NCBI GenBank assembly: GCA_015062605.1
Contig: SUUI01000006.1
Span: 15,205-79,204 of the forward strand
DNA: 64,000 bases
Direction of reading: 5' to 3'
Source: Eggerthellaceae bacterium
GTDB taxonomy: Bacteria; Actinomycetota; Coriobacteriia; Coriobacteriales; Eggerthellaceae
Every line of letters starts with the position of its first letter. Position 1 is the stretch's first letter. A program made the translations under genes and the position numbers. Shown piece by piece: positions 14,907 to 24,571 of the stretch. Under the pieces are notes generated by a model, which ran no database searches, was not told where the DNA came from, and saw nothing but the letters and a program-made list of their open reading frames with translations.

Positions 14907-17054
14907 ATGAAGATACGTAGAAAACAGCGCCAATCAAAAGTACGCACTGGACGGTGGACAGCCCTTTTCATCGTGGCAGCGCTCTTAGTCGTCGCCGTCG
15001 GAGGCCTCGGCGGCTTTCTCGTCCTCGCGAATATCTGGACCGAGGACCTTCCCGACATCACGCAAAAGGATGCGTTCAACTTAGCCCAGCGCTCGACCGT
15101 CTACGCGAATGATGGCGAAACGGTTCTCGCGGAATTCCAAATCGAGAACCGCGAGCCGCTCGATTCCTTGGATCAAATCAGCCCCAACCTCGTGCAGGCG
15201 ACCATCGCAACGGAGGATGCCCGCTTCTACGACCATAACGGCGTCGATCTGTTCGGCATCGCCCGCGCTGTCGTCTCCAATGTGCTTGGTGGCGAAGTCC
15301 AAGGTGCGTCAACCATCACGCAGCAGCTCGTACGCAATACCCTGCTTTCCGATGAAGCGCGCGATATCACGCTCAAGCGTAAGGTGCGCGAAGCCGCGCT
15401 CGCATTGGAAATGGAGAAGCTTTACACCAAGGAAGACATCCTTCTCATGTATCTCAACACCATCAACTATGGTGATGGTTGCTACGGCATCGAATCGGCT
15501 TCGCAGCATTACTTCTCGAAACATGCTTCGGAGCTGACCTTGCCCGAGGCGGCAACGCTCGCGGGCATCCCGCAGTCTCCTTCGTACTTGAACCCGGTCT
15601 ATTACCCGGATGCATGCCAGAATCGCCGTAATTCAGTGCTCTCGCGCATGACCTCCTATGGTGCCATCACAGAAGAGCAGCAGAACGAAGCCATGCAAGC
15701 ACCCCTTACGCTCGAGCTGAAGGAAGCGCAGGGCAATAACGGCATCTACCTCTATCCGTACTTCACGAGCTATGTGCGAGATGTGCTCCTCGAGCAATAC
15801 TCGACCGCCGAGATCTTCGCAGGCGGCTTAAAGATCTACACGACGCTTGACGTGAAGATGCAGGATGCCGCCGAAGCGGCATGCGAAGACCAATGCGACT
15901 CGATGGACGATGCCTACGAGTGCGCGCTTGTAGCGGTCGACCCCAACACCGGATTCATCAAGGCGCTCGTCGGCGGTAAGGACTTCGAGAAAGAGCAATT
16001 CAACATCGCTGTCCAGAAGGGTCGTCCCACCGGCTCGTCCTTCAAGGCGTTCACGCTGACCGCCGCGATCTCTTCGGGCATTTCCCCATCGACCAAGGTG
16101 AACTGCGCATCTCCCGCCACGATTACGGGTAAACGCATCGAGAACTTCGCCAACATCGATTACGGCGTCCGCTCCATCGCGAGCATGACCGCAGTATCCT
16201 CGAACACCGGATTCGCACGTCTCCAGCAAGAAGTCGGCACGCAAAACGTCATCGAGATGGCGCGTAGGCTTGGCATCAAGAACGCCGATCTGCCCGCAGT
16301 CACCTCGCTCACCTTAGGCGTTGCCGATATCACCCCGCTTGAGATGGCTCAGGCTTACGGCACCTTGGCATCAGGCGGCATCTATCATAAGGCCGTACCT
16401 ATCGAGCGCATCGTCGACAAGCACGGCAATGAGATCTACAAGGCAGAGACCGAAGGCGAACGCGTCATCGACCAAAGCATCGCAGGCGCTGTGACAGAAG
16501 TCTTACAGGGCGTCTTCTACGGTGAGGGCACCGCTTCTGGCTATGCGCTTGCCGATGGCCGTCCGGTCGCAGGAAAGACCGGCACGTCCGAGGACTTCCG
16601 TGACCACACGCTCATCGGCTACACACCGCAACTCGTGTGCGCGACATGGATCGGCGACCGCTACAACGTCTACTCCTCCGAATACGTTAACTGCAATTGG
16701 TTGTTCAAGGACTTCATGGACGAGGCCTTATGGGATTACCCCATCGAGTACTTCCCCGCCTACAACACTCCTTCGTATGGCCGTTCCGTCTCCTCTATCC
16801 TGATGGAAGGTGCAAAGGACGAAGATGAGGAAGAGGAAGAGGCGGAAGCGAAGAGAAAGGCCGAGGAAGAGGCTCAGAAGAAAGCCGAAGAGGAAGCCAG
16901 GCAGAAAGCACAAGAGCAGGAGCAGCAGGGCGGCACACCCGGTGGTGATACACCAGGTGGCGATACCCCGGGCGGAGATACGCCAGGAGGAGACACCCCG
17001 GGTGGTGACACTCCCGGTGGAGATACCCCGGGTGGCGATGGCGATTCGGGCTAA
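14907..17054 (+). CDS. class A penicillin-binding protein (GT51 transglycosylase plus transpeptidase) with a charged-helix plus (GGDTP)n C-terminal tail
   Basis: A 715-aa ORF with an N-terminal TM. The GT51 motif is ATEDARFYDHNGVD and the transpeptidase motifs are SSFK and KTGT. The tail is KDEDEEEEEAEAKRKAEEEAQKKAEEEARQKAQEQEQQ followed by GGTP(GGDTP)6GGDGDSG. Confidence 0.9.
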   Translation: MKIRRKQRQSKVRTGRWTALFIVAALLVVAVGGLGGFLVLANIWTEDLPDITQKDAFNLAQRSTVYANDGETVLAEFQIENREPLDSLDQISPNLVQATIATEDARFYDHNGVDLFGIARAVVSNVLGGEVQGASTITQQLVRNTLLSDEARDITLKRKVREAALALEMEKLYTKEDILLMYLNTINYGDGCYGIESASQHYFSKHASELTLPEAATLAGIPQSPSYLNPVYYPDACQNRRNSVLSRMTSYGAITEEQQNEAMQAPLTLELKEAQGNNGIYLYPYFTSYVRDVLLEQYSTAEIFAGGLKIYTTLDVKMQDAAEAACEDQCDSMDDAYECALVAVDPNTGFIKALVGGKDFEKEQFNIAVQKGRPTGSSFKAFTLTAAISSGISPSTKVNCASPATITGKRIENFANIDYGVRSIASMTAVSSNTGFARLQQEVGTQNVIEMARRLGIKNADLPAVTSLTLGVADITPLEMAQAYGTLASGGIYHKAVPIERIVDKHGNEIYKAETEGERVIDQSIAGAVTEVLQGVFYGEGTASGYALADGRPVAGKTGTSEDFRDHTLIGYTPQLVCATWIGDRYNVYSSEYVNCNWLFKDFMDEALWDYPIEYFPAYNTPSYGRSVSSILMEGAKDEDEEEEEAEAKRKAEEEAQKKAEEEARQKAQEQEQQGGTPGGDTPGGDTPGGDTPGGDTPGGDTPGGDTPGGDGDSG
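16929..17045 (+). repeat. in-frame 15-nt tandem repeat coding (GGDTP)n, about 7 units
   Basis: Read directly: ggcggcacaccc ggtggtgatacacca ggtggcgataccccg ggcggagatacgcca ggaggagacaccccg ggtggtgacactccc ggtggagataccccg. The units differ mostly at synonymous positions. Confidence 0.9.
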
Positions 17055-17062
17055 GCCCCTAC

Positions 17063-17689
17063 CTATTTCCCATCAGAGAAGCTTGTGAAAGCACCGCGTT
17101 CGACGGTCGGAAGGCCGTATGTCTCTTTCGCGGCACAGATGGCCTTCATCAGGAAGCTCATATTCCGTGCAAGGTTGCGCATGGTCTGCAAACCCTCGGC
17201 ATCCTTCTTCACATCCTCAGCCGAGAACCCATGCACTTGATTCCAATACGTGGAGGATGCTACCGGCATGCCACTGATGGTGAAGTACTTGTTCAAAGCA
17301 TCGAAAGTCGCACTGGTGCCACCGCGCCTTGCACTCACAACCGAAGCGCCGACCTTCATGTGCTTGGAGAAGGGCGTGCTGTAGAACAGACGGTCCAAAA
17401 ACGCAAGAATGGTGCCATTGGGTGACGCGTAATACACAGGGCTTCCGATGACGAGTCCGTCTGCCTCTTCCAATTTGGGAGCAACCTCATTGACAAGGTC
17501 ATCGATGACACAATGACCGGTTTTGGAACAGGACTGGCAAGCCAAACATCCCCTGATGTCCTTGTTCCCAACATGGATAAGCTCAGTCTCGATGCCTTCC
17601 TCGGCGAAGATGGTACGCATCTCCGCTAACGCCGTTGCCGTGCAGCCATTCGCCTTAGGGCTTCCGTTCAGCATGAGTACCTTTGTCAT
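17063..17689 (-). CDS. iron-sulfur flavoprotein / NADPH-dependent FMN reductase family protein
   Basis: A 208-aa ORF with a flavodoxin-like N-terminus (MTKVLMLNGSPKANGCT) and a compact Cys cluster, CLACQSCSKTGHC (CX2CX2CX5C), typical of Isf-type proteins. Confidence 0.75.
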   Translation of the reverse strand: MTKVLMLNGSPKANGCTATALAEMRTIFAEEGIETELIHVGNKDIRGCLACQSCSKTGHCVIDDLVNEVAPKLEEADGLVIGSPVYYASPNGTILAFLDRLFYSTPFSKHMKVGASVVSARRGGTSATFDALNKYFTISGMPVASSTYWNQVHGFSAEDVKKDAEGLQTMRNLARNMSFLMKAICAAKETYGLPTVERGAFTSFSDGK

Positions 17690-17745
17690 GTTCGATATAC
17701 CTCCTAAAGAGCGTTGAAGAGCTTATTCGATTGGCAAGTTGAAGA

Positions 17746-18393
17746 TCAGTCTTTTACGATCGAGGCGCCCGCTTTACGTGCGCATTCGAGACGCTGCGGG
17801 AACACCGTCTCGTGGCGCTCGATACGCGCTTCGGCGTCGAATCTCGTCCAATTGTAACGAGGATAATCGTTCACCTGCTTCGTGCCAGCAGCGATGATGA
17901 CCGTTGTAGGTCCTACGAACGAATTGAACATCTCCTCGTACTTCTTGATCAGAGCATGGTAATACCCATCAGGCTCATACGCCTCATCCGGAGCGTTGCT
18001 CGTCATGATGAACACCACGGGAATCGGATGCGTATTGTAGCTATCGATTTCAGATTTGTATGTGATGTACTGAAAAATGATACGTTCGATCAGCGCCCTG
18101 AAAGAAGCCGTGCCCTCGCTTAGGTAATTCGGCGTACCGATGATCAACCCATCAGCTGTGCGGATGGCCTCCAACACCTGCGTCAAGCCATCCTTGCAGA
18201 TGCAATGCCCGAGATTCTTCTCAAGCTTGCAGCCGAAGCATGAAATGCAGCCCGTGAACTTATCGAGATCGAACAAATCGAAATACTCGATTTGCGCACC
18301 AGCCTCCTTGGCTCCCTCGCAGGCGGCAGCGATCATCTGCGCCGTATTCCACTTCTTCCGAGGCCCCGCATTCACTGCAACGATACGTTTCAT
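17746..18393 (-). CDS. iron-sulfur flavoprotein / flavodoxin-like NAD(P)H oxidoreductase family protein
   Basis: A 215-aa ORF, MKRIVAVNAGPRKKWNTAQM..., with the Cys motif CISCFGCKLEKNLGHC (CX2CX2CX8C). Confidence 0.75.
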   Translation of the reverse strand: MKRIVAVNAGPRKKWNTAQMIAAACEGAKEAGAQIEYFDLFDLDKFTGCISCFGCKLEKNLGHCICKDGLTQVLEAIRTADGLIIGTPNYLSEGTASFRALIERIIFQYITYKSEIDSYNTHPIPVVFIMTSNAPDEAYEPDGYYHALIKKYEEMFNSFVGPTTVIIAAGTKQVNDYPRYNWTRFDAEARIERHETVFPQRLECARKAGASIVKD

Positions 18394-18466
18394 GGCTCAC
18401 CCTTTCGTCTCAATGCTTGCAAAACACGGGTACTGGCCGTGCTTGGGGTAACGCTCTAAAGAGAGA

Positions 18467-18955
18467 TTATTCCTTGCCTGCAGCCACTTGGTCGGCTTGC
18501 TTCAGCTCATCGATGCCTTTGTTGTACGCGTCTTGTATCTGAGACAATCTCGCAGAATAGCTTGCATCGGACATGCCCTTGGCATTCGCATATAGATCCA
18601 CGTACCCTGAAAGCGCCTCGCGCAGGCTCGTGCAGCCTGCCGCATAGTGCTCATGAACGTCCTTTAGCGCATCGGGTACTTCGAGCTTCTCTATCTTGTC
18701 GAGTACGGCAAGCGCATCGTTCGCCTTCGACACGATGGTGACCTTATCGCCCGAATTTATCGAAGCGGACAGACCCTCGAGCTCGGTTTGGAGCTCGGCC
18801 GCGATCTTGTTTATCTGCGACATATATGCGCGATTCGCTGCCTGTTGCTGCTGCTCGGGCGTCTGGGATTGGCTTGCGCAGCCTGCGAGCATGCATACGG
18901 CCAATGCGCCGATGCACGCAAAGGCGATCAGTTTCGCGAAACGTTTCTTAATCAT
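18467..18955 (-). CDS. putative lipoprotein, helical, function unknown
   Basis: A 162-aa ORF with a signal peptide and lipobox (ALAVCMLAGC|ASQ). Confidence 0.6.
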   Translation of the reverse strand: MIKKRFAKLIAFACIGALAVCMLAGCASQSQTPEQQQQAANRAYMSQINKIAAELQTELEGLSASINSGDKVTIVSKANDALAVLDKIEKLEVPDALKDVHEHYAAGCTSLREALSGYVDLYANAKGMSDASYSARLSQIQDAYNKGIDELKQADQVAAGKE

Positions 18956-19017
18956 GAACTGCCTTTCTATCGCACATGAGGTTCACGAAGCATCTTTGGG
19001 GAACGTGCTGTGCAATC

Positions 19018-21498
19018 TTATGGGTTACCGCCTGAGTTGTCTCCGGGCGTGTCCCCTCCTGGCGTGTCGCCGCCGGGCGTATCACCTCCAGGCGTGTCAC
19101 CGCCTGGTGTATCACCACCTGGTGTGTCGCCTCCGGGCGTATCACCGCCTCCAGGCGTGTCGCCGCCTTGTGCCTGCTCTTCAGCCTTCTTCTTGGCCTC
19201 TTCCTCGGCCTTCTTCTTGGCCTCTTCCTCGGCCTTCTTCTTCTCTTCCTCTTCCTTCTTCTTCTCTTCCTCTTCTTCCTTCGTGGAGGAGTTCAGGCCC
19301 TTGATGTCAAGGTCGGTATTAGAGAAGGTGCGCCAGTAGTTGGGATATCCGGCTTCAGGGAAGTCGCGCGATTCGGAATCGGCAAGGGCGGCACTCACGA
19401 AATCGGAGAACACATCGGCGACGGTGCCTGAACACGAGACGCGATTAGTACGGTCTCCCATCCAGACCGCTACGGAAAGCTGCGGAGTGATGCCGCAGAA
19501 CCACAGGTTAAGGTAATTCTCGGACGTGCCCGTCTTACCCGCCGCAATCTGATCGATATCCAAAGCAGCCGCGGAACCCGTTCCGTGATAGGAATAGATG
19601 ACGCCCTCCATGATCTCGGTCGCTGCATGGGCTATCTCGGGCTCTAAGGCCTTCTCGCCCTTGGGGCTCGTATTGTCGATGATGACATTGCCCTTGCGGT
19701 CGTACGCGATCTCGACAACCTCGGCTTTATAATGCGTACCGCCGTTGGCGATGGTCGCATAGGCATCGGCCATCTCGAGAGGCGTGACGCCGCTCGTGCC
19801 TAAGGTAAGGGACGGTACTTCGGCGAGGTCGGATTTGATACCCATGCGATGGGCGACCTCGGCTACCTTATCGGCACCGAGCACCCAGATAAGGCGTGAG
19901 AAGCCCGTGTTCGAGGACACTTCGAACGCACCCTGCATGGTTTGCGTGCCGTAGTTGATCTTGTCATAGTTGTAAATCTTGTTGTCGTAGCCGGGCAGCT
20001 GCACCATCGATCCGCAATCGATCGGCGTCTGAGGGCTGATACCGCCTTCGAGCGCCGCGATCAACGTGAAGGTCTTGAACGAAGAGCCTGCTTGGCGCTG
20101 CGCTTGGGCAGCAAGGTTCCATTGGTCTTCGTAATAGTCCTTGCCACCAACCATGGCCTTCACATAACCGTTGGAGGGATCGACTGCCACGATGGCAACC
20201 TCGAGTGAGTCGTTGACCCGATCCTCCTTGTTGGCAGCGGCTTCTTCGGCTTTTTCCTGCATGTCGACATCGAGCGTGGTGTAAACGGTCATGCCTCCTT
20301 GGAACACATCCGCCGTCGACAGGCCATAATCGCTCGTTAAGGTCTCGCGCACATAGCTTGCGAAATAAGGGTACTCGACGATGCCGTCGTTAGACTCCCA
20401 CGTGACATTCAGTTCGATGGGCTCCTGTTTGGCTGCTTCAGCTTCCTCTTGCGTGATGGCGCCATATGAGACCATGCGGTTGAGCACGATGTTTCGGCGA
20501 TCGAGCGCATGGTCGGGGAAATCGATGGGATTGTTATATGTCGGCGATTGCGGGATGCCTACCAAAAGCGCCGCCTCGGCTAAGGTAAGCTCTTTCGAGC
20601 TCTTCCCGAAATAGCGCCTCGAGGCAGCTTCGATGCCGTAAGCACCGTTGCCATAATTGATGGTATTGATGTAAAGGAGCAGAATCTCATCTTTAGAGAA
20701 CATGCGCTCCATCTGGATGGCGAGGAACGCCTCGCGTACCTTGCGCTTGAGCGTAACCTCCGACATCTCATCGGCAAGGATCGTATTGCGCACGAGCTGT
20801 TGCGTGATGGTCGATGCTCCCTCGAGCGTTCCGCCCGTCATGTTGTTTATCACCGCACGCGCAATGCCGATCGGATCGACGCCGATGTGCAAATAGAAGC
20901 GTTCGTCTTCTGTGGCGACCGTTCCCACGGTGGCATAATTGCCGACCTCTTCGAGCGAATTCAGCGGAATGCGGTACTCGAATTGGAATCGTGCGAGTAA
21001 GGTCTCATGATCGCTTGCATACACCATGGTCGGCTGAATCGTGTTGTATGCGGATGCGTCATCGTACTCGGGCAGGTCTTGGAGCCAATAGACGCATACC
21101 GCGCCAATGCCGACGCAAGCTACGATGAACACGCCTAAGATGCAGGTGAGGATCTTCTTTATGATGCTTGCGGACTTGAACCACTCCGGAAAGCTTCTGC
21201 GTTGGCGTTTTGCCTTCGGCTCGGCAGCATCCTCGGTGGCTTCGGGATCATCGGAATCGAGGGTTGCGAGGATATCATCCTGATCAAGCTCGGCTTCTGA
21301 GAACTCCTCCCCATCGAATTCGTCCTCTATGGGCACATCTTCGTCGGTTTGAAGCTCATCGGATGCAACAGCGCCATGACGAGGTTTTTTAACCGCGTCT
21401 TCAGGATCGCCGAACATCTCATCGAGCACATCTTCATTAAGATCAAGCTCGTCGTCGATCCAATCCTCTTCAGATCCGTGCTTTGCATGAAAAGCCAT
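19018..21498 (-). CDS. class A penicillin-binding protein, a paralogue of 14907..17054, with an acidic cytoplasmic N-terminal extension and the same charged-helix plus (GGDTP)n tail
   Basis: An 826-aa ORF. The GT51 motif is ATEDERFYLHIGVD and the transpeptidase motifs are SSFK and KTGT. The tail is KEEEEEKKKEEEEKKKAEEEAKKKAEEEAKKKAEEQAQ followed by (GGDTP)8. Confidence 0.9.
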   Translation of the reverse strand: MAFHAKHGSEEDWIDDELDLNEDVLDEMFGDPEDAVKKPRHGAVASDELQTDEDVPIEDEFDGEEFSEAELDQDDILATLDSDDPEATEDAAEPKAKRQRRSFPEWFKSASIIKKILTCILGVFIVACVGIGAVCVYWLQDLPEYDDASAYNTIQPTMVYASDHETLLARFQFEYRIPLNSLEEVGNYATVGTVATEDERFYLHIGVDPIGIARAVINNMTGGTLEGASTITQQLVRNTILADEMSEVTLKRKVREAFLAIQMERMFSKDEILLLYINTINYGNGAYGIEAASRRYFGKSSKELTLAEAALLVGIPQSPTYNNPIDFPDHALDRRNIVLNRMVSYGAITQEEAEAAKQEPIELNVTWESNDGIVEYPYFASYVRETLTSDYGLSTADVFQGGMTVYTTLDVDMQEKAEEAAANKEDRVNDSLEVAIVAVDPSNGYVKAMVGGKDYYEDQWNLAAQAQRQAGSSFKTFTLIAALEGGISPQTPIDCGSMVQLPGYDNKIYNYDKINYGTQTMQGAFEVSSNTGFSRLIWVLGADKVAEVAHRMGIKSDLAEVPSLTLGTSGVTPLEMADAYATIANGGTHYKAEVVEIAYDRKGNVIIDNTSPKGEKALEPEIAHAATEIMEGVIYSYHGTGSAAALDIDQIAAGKTGTSENYLNLWFCGITPQLSVAVWMGDRTNRVSCSGTVADVFSDFVSAALADSESRDFPEAGYPNYWRTFSNTDLDIKGLNSSTKEEEEEKKKEEEEKKKAEEEAKKKAEEEAKKKAEEQAQGGDTPGGGDTPGGDTPGGDTPGGDTPGGDTPGGDTPGGDTPGDNSGGNP
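19036..19166 (-). repeat. in-frame 15-nt tandem repeat coding (GGDTP)n, about 8 units; inverted relative to 16929..17045
   Basis: Read directly on the plus strand as (ggcgtgtcNccNcc)n. It shares runs such as ggtggtgatacaccagg with the other PBP tail on the opposite strand. Confidence 0.9.
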
Positions 21499-23587: not shown

Positions 23588-24571
23588 TCAGGTGAGCGGC
23601 GGCATCGGCTTCCATGTCGGGTCGTGCATGATCACTCGAGAATCCTTCCAGCCCTCGAACAGGCGCTCCGCTCCCGAACGAACGCACTTCTTATCGACGG
23701 CGAAGAGGCGGATGAATTCCTTGCAGAAGGTTAGGAAGGTGCCGAAGCCGAACGTGAAGCGGTTGAAATCGCCATGCTCCGCAAAATACCGCGCCATATA
23801 GCCGCGGTTGCGCATGATGTGGTAACGGTTCATGTCGGACGTGGAATTGAGCTGGCGAACACCGGCGATGTCCCAATTGTTGATGTTACGCGTACGACGC
23901 AGGATGAAGTCGGACACGACGACAGGCGTCGTGACCTTGCTCGCCAGATATCCGTAGATGGTATCGTCCCAATAGATGAAGAAGCGCGGATCAGGGATGC
24001 CGATCTTCTCCACGACCGAACGGGCGAAAAGCCCGCCTTCGAAGCACACGGTATTCATCACGCGATGGTCTGAAGTTTCGAAACCCTCGGGTGCAATCGG
24101 GTTCGGAATGCCCAAAGGAACGAGGAAATGGTACTGCCAGTAGAATGGCCCGCCATCGTAATCGTAGCGACGGCCTTGGATCACGTCGTAGCGATCCGTC
24201 CATTTGGAGAGCTTTTGGATGGCATCCGGCTCGACTGCGACATCATCGTCCATGAGCCAGAACCACTCGGCGCCCAAATCGAAGGCACGCTGAGTTCCTG
24301 CGGAGAAACCGCCTGCGCCGCCGCCGTTTACCGGTTGCGGGAAGTACACGAAGTAACGACGCTCGCCTTCCGCATCAAGTTCGGGTTCGCCCCAAATATC
24401 ACGAGCAATCTGCTCGTACTCATCGACTATGAAAGAAGTGAGCGGAGAATTTTCATTGTCAGCGATGATGATGCGCCACGGCGCGTCATCTAAGGAAACG
24501 AGGGAGTCGAACAAGGTCATAAGCAGCTCTTGGCGCTTAAAGGTCACTATGACGATCGCTAGCTTTTCCAT
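23588..24571 (-). CDS. family 2 glycosyltransferase
   Basis: A 327-aa ORF with MEKLAIVIVTFKRQELL...IIIADNENS...WLMDDDV motifs (GT-A fold, DxD). Confidence 0.8.
   Translation of the reverse strand: MEKLAIVIVTFKRQELLMTLFDSLVSLDDAPWRIIIADNENSPLTSFIVDEYEQIARDIWGEPELDAEGERRYFVYFPQPVNGGGAGGFSAGTQRAFDLGAEWFWLMDDDVAVEPDAIQKLSKWTDRYDVIQGRRYDYDGGPFYWQYHFLVPLGIPNPIAPEGFETSDHRVMNTVCFEGGLFARSVVEKIGIPDPRFFIYWDDTIYGYLASKVTTPVVVSDFILRRTRNINNWDIAGVRQLNSTSDMNRYHIMRNRGYMARYFAEHGDFNRFTFGFGTFLTFCKEFIRLFAVDKKCVRSGAERLFEGWKDSRVIMHDPTWKPMPPLT

Follow-up and report, generated by a model that had tools for sequence, protein, structure and literature searches.

Two convergent class A penicillin-binding proteins of an Eggerthellaceae bacterium share a charged-helix and GGDTP tail, probably a lineage-specific form of the C-terminal disordered region

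Introduction

The penicillin-binding protein (PBP) 1 homologues of many Gram-positive bacteria carry C-terminal disordered regions (Brunet et al. 2022, PMC9732909). At normal expression levels Bacillus subtilis (B. subtilis) PBP1 does not need its tail, but the tail is required for full function in sensitised backgrounds, where heterologous and scrambled versions of it work (PMC9732909). The model proposed for B. subtilis is that the disordered region steers PBP1 to gaps in the peptidoglycan (PMC9732909). The streptococcal PBP1a and PBP1b proteins feature Ser/Thr-rich C-terminal disordered tails that are O-glycosylated and protected from proteolysis, and the glycosylation involves either GtrB plus the YfhO-family protein PgtC2 or the Pgf system (PMC12041528). 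The locus described here encodes two class A PBPs, referred to as PBP-A and PBP-B, and lies in a 64,000-nucleotide stretch of DNA (the window) from an Eggerthellaceae bacterium (assembly GCA_015062605.1, contig SUUI01000006.1, positions 15,205 to 79,204 of the forward strand). The two genes are convergent, with PBP-A located at 14907-17054 on the plus strand and PBP-B at 19018-21498 on the minus strand, and three genes lie between them. Both proteins end in a charged segment that is followed by an array of GGDTP pentapeptides. An earlier note on this DNA, made from the sequence alone, had described the shared tails, had not recognised them from characterised PBPs, and had proposed that the inverted DNA repeat they form could recombine. 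By comparison with the B. subtilis and streptococcal proteins, the tails are probably a lineage-specific form of the C-terminal disordered region of Gram-positive class A PBPs, with the DNA repeat playing a passive part.

Domain content of PBP-A and PBP-B

PBP-A (715 aa) features an N-terminal transmembrane (TM) anchor, a GT51 domain, and a transpeptidase domain, and PBP-B (826 aa) has the same core preceded by an acidic N-terminal extension. The Pfam matches are Transgly (2.6e-62) and Transpeptidase (9.6e-29) for PBP-A and Transgly (8.1e-58) and Transpeptidase (1.2e-30) for PBP-B, and both proteins score slightly below the NCBIfam PBP_1a_fam cut-off. The two cores are 49% identical. The GT51 motif EDxxF(Y/W)xHxG is present in both proteins (ATEDARFYDHNGVD and ATEDERFYLHIGVD), as are the transpeptidase motifs SxxK, SxN, and KTG(T/S), which read GSSFK, SSNTG, and GKTGTS. 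A single N-terminal membrane anchor is predicted for each protein from the hydrophobic stretches WTALFIVAALLVVAVGGLGGFLVLA and ILTCILGVFIVACVGIGAVCVYW, which were read by eye from the translations. The extension that precedes the anchor of PBP-B consists of about 110 strongly Asp/Glu-rich residues (window 21169-21498, minus strand) and is absent from PBP-A; it is presumably a cytoplasmic disordered region. PBP-A and PBP-B are the sole Transgly-bearing genes in the 1.70 Mb, 98%-complete genome. The protein collection holds no exact entry for PBP-B, and the PBP-A cluster consists of the query and one fragment.

Anatomy and predicted structure of the tails

The tails begin about 60 residues past the Pfam Transpeptidase match in both proteins and extend to the stop codon. 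The PBP-A tail features a charged E/K/A/Q-rich segment of 39 residues (AKDEDEEEEEAEAKRKAEEEAQKKAEEEARQKAQEQEQQ, 16812-16928, plus strand), followed by a pentapeptide array that reads GGTP, (GGDTP)6, and GGDGDSG (16929-17051, plus strand). The PBP-B tail features an ER/K-type charged segment, also of 39 residues (TKEEEEEKKKEEEEKKKAEEEAKKKAEEEAKKKAEEQAQ, 19168-19284, minus strand), followed by (GGDTP)8, with one unit GGGDTP, and then GDNSGGNP (19021-19167, minus strand). There are thus 6 perfect GGDTP units in PBP-A and 8 in PBP-B. The last 88 residues of PBP-B contain no aromatic residue and no aliphatic residue except Ala. Within the charged segment of PBP-B, a perfect tandem pair of a 24-nt unit encodes AEEEAKKK (19186-19233, minus strand), which Tandem Repeats Finder reports with a period of 24 and 91% matches. 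The earlier description of two convergent class A PBPs with shared charged and GGDTP tails is therefore borne out, both in its positions and, through the Pfam matches, in its domain assignments.

The last 147 residues of PBP-B were modelled with single-sequence AlphaFold2, which gave a mean predicted local distance difference test (pLDDT) score of 57.8. In the model the E/K segment forms one continuous 39-residue helix (model residues 59-97) with block-mean pLDDT values of 69-83, and the GGDTP array has no secondary structure and a pLDDT of about 50. Only the distal half of the tail is predicted to be disordered, the E/K half being predicted to be helical. The segment shows runs of E and K with i to i+4 spacing, namely EEEEKKK (E4K3) and AEEEAKKK, which we take to be the patterns of ER/K single alpha-helices. 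If fully helical, such a stalk would be about 6 nm long (39 residues at 1.5 Å per residue). The charged segment of PBP-A is taken to be an ER/K-type single helix as well, by analogy with the modelled segment of PBP-B.

Comparison with described systems

The tails resemble that of B. subtilis PBP1 in being located at the extreme C terminus on the extracytoplasmic side, in favouring charged and polar over hydrophobic residues, and in that the presence of a tail is kept among relatives and its sequence is poorly conserved. The earlier view that the tail type was not known from characterised PBPs is incorrect, as such regions have been both described and tested in Gram-positive bacteria (PMC9732909, PMC12041528). 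There are also differences from B. subtilis PBP1. The tail described here has two parts, a predicted rigid ER/K helix and a perfect pentapeptide array; the repeat peptide shows strict conservation within the array; no FN3 domain precedes the tail; and both class A PBPs of the cell carry one. In the last respect the locus is like the streptococci, where the C-terminal disordered tail is found on more than one class A PBP paralogue per cell. However, the streptococcal tails are poly-Ser/Thr, whereas each repeat unit here has a single Thr and the genome is without a YfhO or PMT homologue.

Two further comparisons concern the parts of the tail. The array is like the wall-spanning Pro/Gly/Thr-rich regions of sortase-anchored proteins, where GGDTP and GGNTP arrays occur. 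Unlike those proteins, the PBPs are membrane-anchored at the N terminus and have the array as a free C-terminal end, so that it would enter the wall from below. ER/K single alpha-helix spacers occur in myosin VI, myosin X, and caldesmon. The charged segment is like these spacers in that E runs are followed by K/R and in that one long helix without a hydrophobic core is predicted, but it differs from them in being bacterial, extracytoplasmic, and short (about 39 residues). A literature search returned nothing relevant on GGDTP repeats or on single alpha-helices in PBPs.

A conserved peptide repeat and a passive DNA repeat

The two tails are related as DNA by inverted arms of 89-128 nt that are 73-81% complementary, and both tails are also detected as 15-nt tandem arrays. 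The earlier note had reported identical runs of about 17 nt in inverted orientation; the longest exact runs common to both tails are indeed three runs, each of 17 nt. The expectation for two tails that share only their peptide was obtained by redrawing both tails 1000 times, with synonymous codons sampled from genome usage. The simulated longest shared run is 16.7 +/- 3.2 nt, and at least 17 nt is reached in 56% of the draws. Codon identity between GGDTP units is 0.32 within PBP-A, 0.39 within PBP-B, and 0.25 between the two, compared with 0.36 expected from genome usage. All 14 perfect units (14/14) are identical in amino acids, and their synonymous sites are fully randomised. The saturation of synonymous sites without a single amino-acid difference among 14 units indicates that the peptide is under purifying selection.

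The internal repeats within both GGDTP arrays match the simulated lengths, being neither longer nor shorter. The codon comparison and the simulation reveal no sign of duplication, slippage, or gene conversion in the recent past of the arrays. Active avoidance of DNA repeats by codon scrambling was considered and dropped, as the internal repeat lengths are those simulated. Within the tails, repetition at the DNA level is confined to the helix-coding part of PBP-B, where the internal direct repeat measures 35 nt, compared with an expectation of 13.7 nt (p about 0.002). The inverted DNA repeat contains no information beyond the shared peptide and arises passively, from a convergent gene pair inherited from the family's ancestor and from a peptide repeat common to both proteins.

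Orthologues and the replacement of PASTA

The ancestry of the pair was determined from a search of 40 related genomes. The gene order, in which a divergent U32 peptidase gene is followed by PBP-A, the convergent lipoprotein and PBP-B genes, and argH, is retained in nine other genera. In a maximum-likelihood tree built from the cores, an A clade that includes PBP-A and a B clade that includes PBP-B are separated with support of 100/100. This split, together with the shared gene order, shows that the paralogues and their convergent arrangement are older than the radiation of the family. In the other genera the lipoprotein gene is the sole gene between the PBP genes, and both flavoprotein genes were added in this genus.

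The tails of the PBP-B-type orthologues from other genera of the order are low-complexity in all readable cases (27/27). Their composition varies among G, S, T, N, D, and P, with GGNT, PTPDPT, GGGDS, TGTGTT, and poly-S/N tails, and in several of them an E/K-rich segment comes first. The PBP-A orthologues have a different C terminus. A C-terminal PASTA domain (PF03793) is present in 7/7 PBP-A orthologues from other genera, whereas Pfam gives no PASTA match in the PBP-A of the window or in that of the sister species. M. tuberculosis PonA2 is an example of a PASTA-bearing class A PBP. Because PBP-A is orthologous by tree and gene order to the PASTA-bearing forms of other Eggerthellaceae, the domain comparison indicates that in this genus PBP-A swapped PASTA for a PBP-B-like disordered tail. 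The PBP-A of this genus, without the PASTA domain found in seven other genera, is new here.

Variation between strains and species

Ten metagenome contigs carry the exact PBP-A sequence; five of them were compared in detail, and four more are similar. The contigs compared in detail have one gene order and orientation. They are 100% identical to the window over up to 8 kb, apart from a single 24-nt deletion in contig L049 that drops one AEEEAKKK from the PBP-B helix, giving a protein of 818 instead of 826 aa in a contig that is otherwise identical over 8 kb. This indel falls exactly at the predicted slippage site and is the sole length-variable site within the population. A 96%-identical strain (L054) has all six PBP-A units, altered by one T to I and one D to E substitution. 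Past the PBP-B stop codon of L054 the homology ends and the contig runs into an ftsY fragment without a genome match (L054:12135-12623); this part was treated as a chimeric assembly.

The sister species (L053) has the same gene order and orientation, and its cores are 90-93% identical to those of the window in amino acids. In its PBP-B array, 9 perfect GGDTP units are joined by GGDAS and a final GGDTP, and the array contains exact 30-nt DNA repeats. In the PBP-A tail of the sister species the E/K segment leads into (GGEGGES)-type repeats, which include long repeats that are exact as DNA. In a fourth lineage (L055) the array reads GGDTP/GGETP x6 and is followed by GGGDDSGGEGESG. Length changes are confined to stretches that are repetitive as DNA, which are the 24-nt indel, the 30-nt repeats of the sister species, and the GGEGGES array; repeat number and type shift between close species because stretches that are identical as DNA expand. 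The expectation that repeat number would vary between strains holds in part. Variation exists, but within the strain it is limited to the 24-nt helix unit, and the GGDTP number differs between species only (8 versus 9 perfect units plus 2 further units in PBP-B).

The metagenome-assembled genomes (MAGs) from the same genus were set aside as population data, as their contigs break within the E/K-coding region and carry no tail information. In one of them (G002) the contig continues into unrelated low-GC sequence inside the E/K region, and in another the contigs end within both E/K regions. The assembly-fragile sites at the tails are L054:12135-12623, L046:1-124, and the contig ends of L043 and L047.

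Distribution of GGDTP arrays and of the two-part design

A whole-genome search for GGDTP arrays found none in the 1.70 Mb genome besides those of the two PBPs, so the motif is not a common low-complexity feature there, a point on which the earlier note had made its reading depend. A search with the tail only returned 94 proteins, about twenty of which are class A PBPs. The remaining matches, unrelated proteins that are secreted or located at the surface, have Cna_B-like, Big_2, VanW, GH25, LRR, or fn3 domains, and their arrays are located after the signal peptide, between domains, or ahead of a sortase signal. In a protein from an Eggerthellaceae MAG (P0016), an array of 11 units stops 13 residues short of an MPGTG motif and a TM anchor, and another protein (P0004) combines an array with an LPKTG signal. 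A secreted protein encoded by a member of a different family within the order (L045:1902-3909, G034:C135) carries (GGDTP)9 and then (GNGTEP)8 just past the signal peptide; this position right after the signal peptide means that the motif serves as an N-terminal linker in unrelated proteins. These sequence contexts mark the GGDTP array as a general extracellular linker and wall-spanning element.

The combination of a charged segment and an array is found in PBPs that are only distantly related to the two described here. P0024, a distant class A PBP with a core about 30% identical to that of PBP-B, features an E/K/A-rich segment followed by (GGDTP)8, and P0036, another distant class A PBP, has a K/T-rich segment followed by (GGDTP)6. 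A family of class A PBPs with cores 42% identical to PBP-B has tails made of an E/K helix and (GGSTS)n, and its members are 739-769 aa long. Within this (GGSTS)n lineage (P0022, P0025, P0028, and about 15 relatives) the differences lie almost only in pentapeptide count and helix length, and tail length variation looks usual for the helix-plus-pentapeptide design. The recurrence of the two-part tail in distant class A PBPs is new here.

Proposed function of the tails

Several results agree with the earlier proposal that the tail is a selected functional module, namely the conserved peptide with its randomised synonymous sites, the low-complexity tails of all 27 readable orthologues, and the GGDTP arrays beside sortase signals. 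The support is for the kind of module proposed. By analogy with the described tails, the ER/K helix would be a stiff stalk that projects the array away from the transpeptidase domain. The array, an acidic Gly/Pro/Thr pentapeptide array of about 40 residues, would be intrinsically disordered and would thread the wall. It would slip into openings of the peptidoglycan mesh and keep the synthase in place for repair, as extrapolated from B. subtilis PBP1. The tails probably evolve as stretches of identical DNA slip or are duplicated and then drift at synonymous sites while selection maintains the peptide.

A more specific version of this function may be put forward tentatively, although it is rather doubtful. 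The tail would act as a ruler plus probe, in which the helix sets the distance of the array from the membrane and its length is tuned in steps of 8 residues by 24-nt slippage. The design would have arisen repeatedly in class A PBPs of Gram-positive anaerobes, and it would functionally replace PASTA as the module that locates wall work.

Some points weigh against a disordered-region function accompanied by a passive DNA repeat. The function is inferred by analogy. Scrambled B. subtilis tails are functional, and the strictness with which the GGDTP peptide is conserved here is hard to reconcile with this; it may reflect a further constraint, for example resistance to proteases, a modification, or a defined, extended conformation. 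GGDTP itself can be dispensed with, as the PBP-A of the sister species has GGEGGES in its place. The helix call comes from single-sequence AlphaFold2 at moderate confidence, with the mean pLDDT given above. Finally, assemblies report the majority orientation only, and a rare inversion could escape them.

Alternative explanations

There are four other explanations of the tails or of the DNA repeat. The first is an old gene conversion that placed the PBP-B tail onto PBP-A, replaced PASTA, and left a DNA trace that has since been erased. This origin is possible, though on balance unlikely. The PASTA domain in the PBP-A orthologues of seven other genera, as opposed to the PBP-B-like tail here, is what such an event would leave, and in one genome (G023) the E/K segments of PBP-A and PBP-B alike end in EEEANKP. 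The convergent arrangement places the tails 2 kb apart. Between species of the genus the cores share 84-87% of their nucleotides and 91-93% of their amino acids, and synonymous sites are so heavily substituted that an old DNA trace could vanish. However, there is no DNA-level signal at all, and the tails of the sister species differ from each other, with GGEGGES on PBP-A and GGDTP on PBP-B. In addition, the same architecture occurs in class A PBPs with cores that are 30-42% identical, which makes independent convergence equally possible.

The second explanation is that the array is mainly a modification site, through O-glycosylation of the Thr that precedes Pro, or a cation-binding site formed by its Asp residues, and is not a plain disordered probe. 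The streptococcal Ser/Thr-rich PBP tails are a precedent for O-glycosylation (PMC12041528), strict conservation of the peptide would suit a recognition motif, and a glycosyltransferase family 2 (GT2) gene encoding 327 aa lies three genes past PBP-B. On the other hand, the 98%-complete genome has no match to GT-C glycosyltransferases of the YfhO family (PF09586) or the PMT family (PF02366), and the array has one Thr per unit and no poly-Ser/Thr tracks. A role of this kind is improbable.

The third explanation, that the tails are neutral low-complexity expansions without function, is consistent with the complete turnover of their sequence between genera, and for PBP-A even between sister species, as well as with the dispensability of the B. 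subtilis PBP1 tail at normal expression (PMC9732909). Neutral expansion does not predict 14 units with identical amino acids and random synonymous sites, a tail in 27/27 readable orthologues from other genera, or the recurrence of the two-part design in distant class A PBPs, and it is highly improbable.

The fourth explanation, and by far the least probable, is that the tails serve as inverted repeats for recombinational inversion of the 2-kb segment between them, which would swap the distal tails or switch the expression of the intervening genes. The geometry that the earlier note had pointed out is real, as an exchange within the tails, read from the sequences, leaves both reading frames open, and in two MAGs of the genus and one metagenome contig the assembly is interrupted or becomes chimeric in or beside the tails. 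However, the longest identity of 17 nt and the overall similarity of 73-81% are what random codon choice is expected to give, and such a repeat is short and diverged for homologous recombination; no recombinase gene is among those called within about 8 kb on either side; and the broken MAG contig ends share no long k-mer, the breaks lying in low-complexity, purine-rich E/K-coding DNA at low coverage. The search of population assemblies for both orientations of 17055-19017 found one orientation only, in nine contigs of this strain, the 96% strain, the sister species, L055, and nine other genera, and the length variants described above were found along with it. The inverted repeat is very probably not a genetic switch, and the tail is a lineage-specific variant of a known feature.

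Neighbouring genes

The tails flank three genes unrelated to the PBPs, two FMN_red flavoproteins with a Cys motif and one lipoprotein, as had been noted before. Flavoprotein 1 (17063-17689, minus strand) is an FMN_red protein (Pfam PF03358, 2.8e-27) with an Isf-like Cys motif, and flavoprotein 2 (17746-18393, minus strand) has Pfam matches to FMN_red and Flavodoxin_2. Each of them features a compact motif of four cysteines, C-x2-C-x2-C-x5-8-C. In the sister species a deletion of about 340 nt has left only 98 aa of flavoprotein 1 (L053:11801-12097). The stop codons of the convergent PBP-A and flavoprotein 1 genes are 8 nt apart (window 17052-17065). An intergenic terminator cannot fit into this gap, which means that the transcripts overlap or terminate within the opposite gene.

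The lipoprotein (162 aa, 18467-18955, minus strand) has the lipobox LAGC, and its gene is directly downstream of PBP-B on the same strand. Searches of Pfam and NCBIfam gave no match for it. Homologues at the same position have 30-44% identity in eight other genera and 78% identity in the sister species. The lipoprotein is a candidate partner or regulator of PBP-B.

The genes called within about 8 kb on each side are those for RNase R, an S41 peptidase, FtsEX, transketolase, the U32 peptidase, argH, argR, GT2, and a glycosyltransferase family 4 (GT4) protein. The GT2 gene is located at window 23588-24571 (minus strand), past argH and argR. A GT4 gene of the WecA/MraY type diverges from it, and this arrangement is repeated in the sister species.

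Implications

The locus is a useful negative example, in that a striking inverted DNA repeat between convergent genes is fully explained by shared peptide repeats. It also bears on how Gram-positive class A PBPs locate sites that need new wall, a question for which the disordered-tail model is based on B. subtilis alone. The locus offers a natural tail with a defined two-part design, and an orthologous enzyme on which such a tail has taken the place of the peptidoglycan-binding PASTA domain. Close strains and species differ in helix length and repeat number, and these proteins thereby provide testable variants of the stalk, the array, and the motif.

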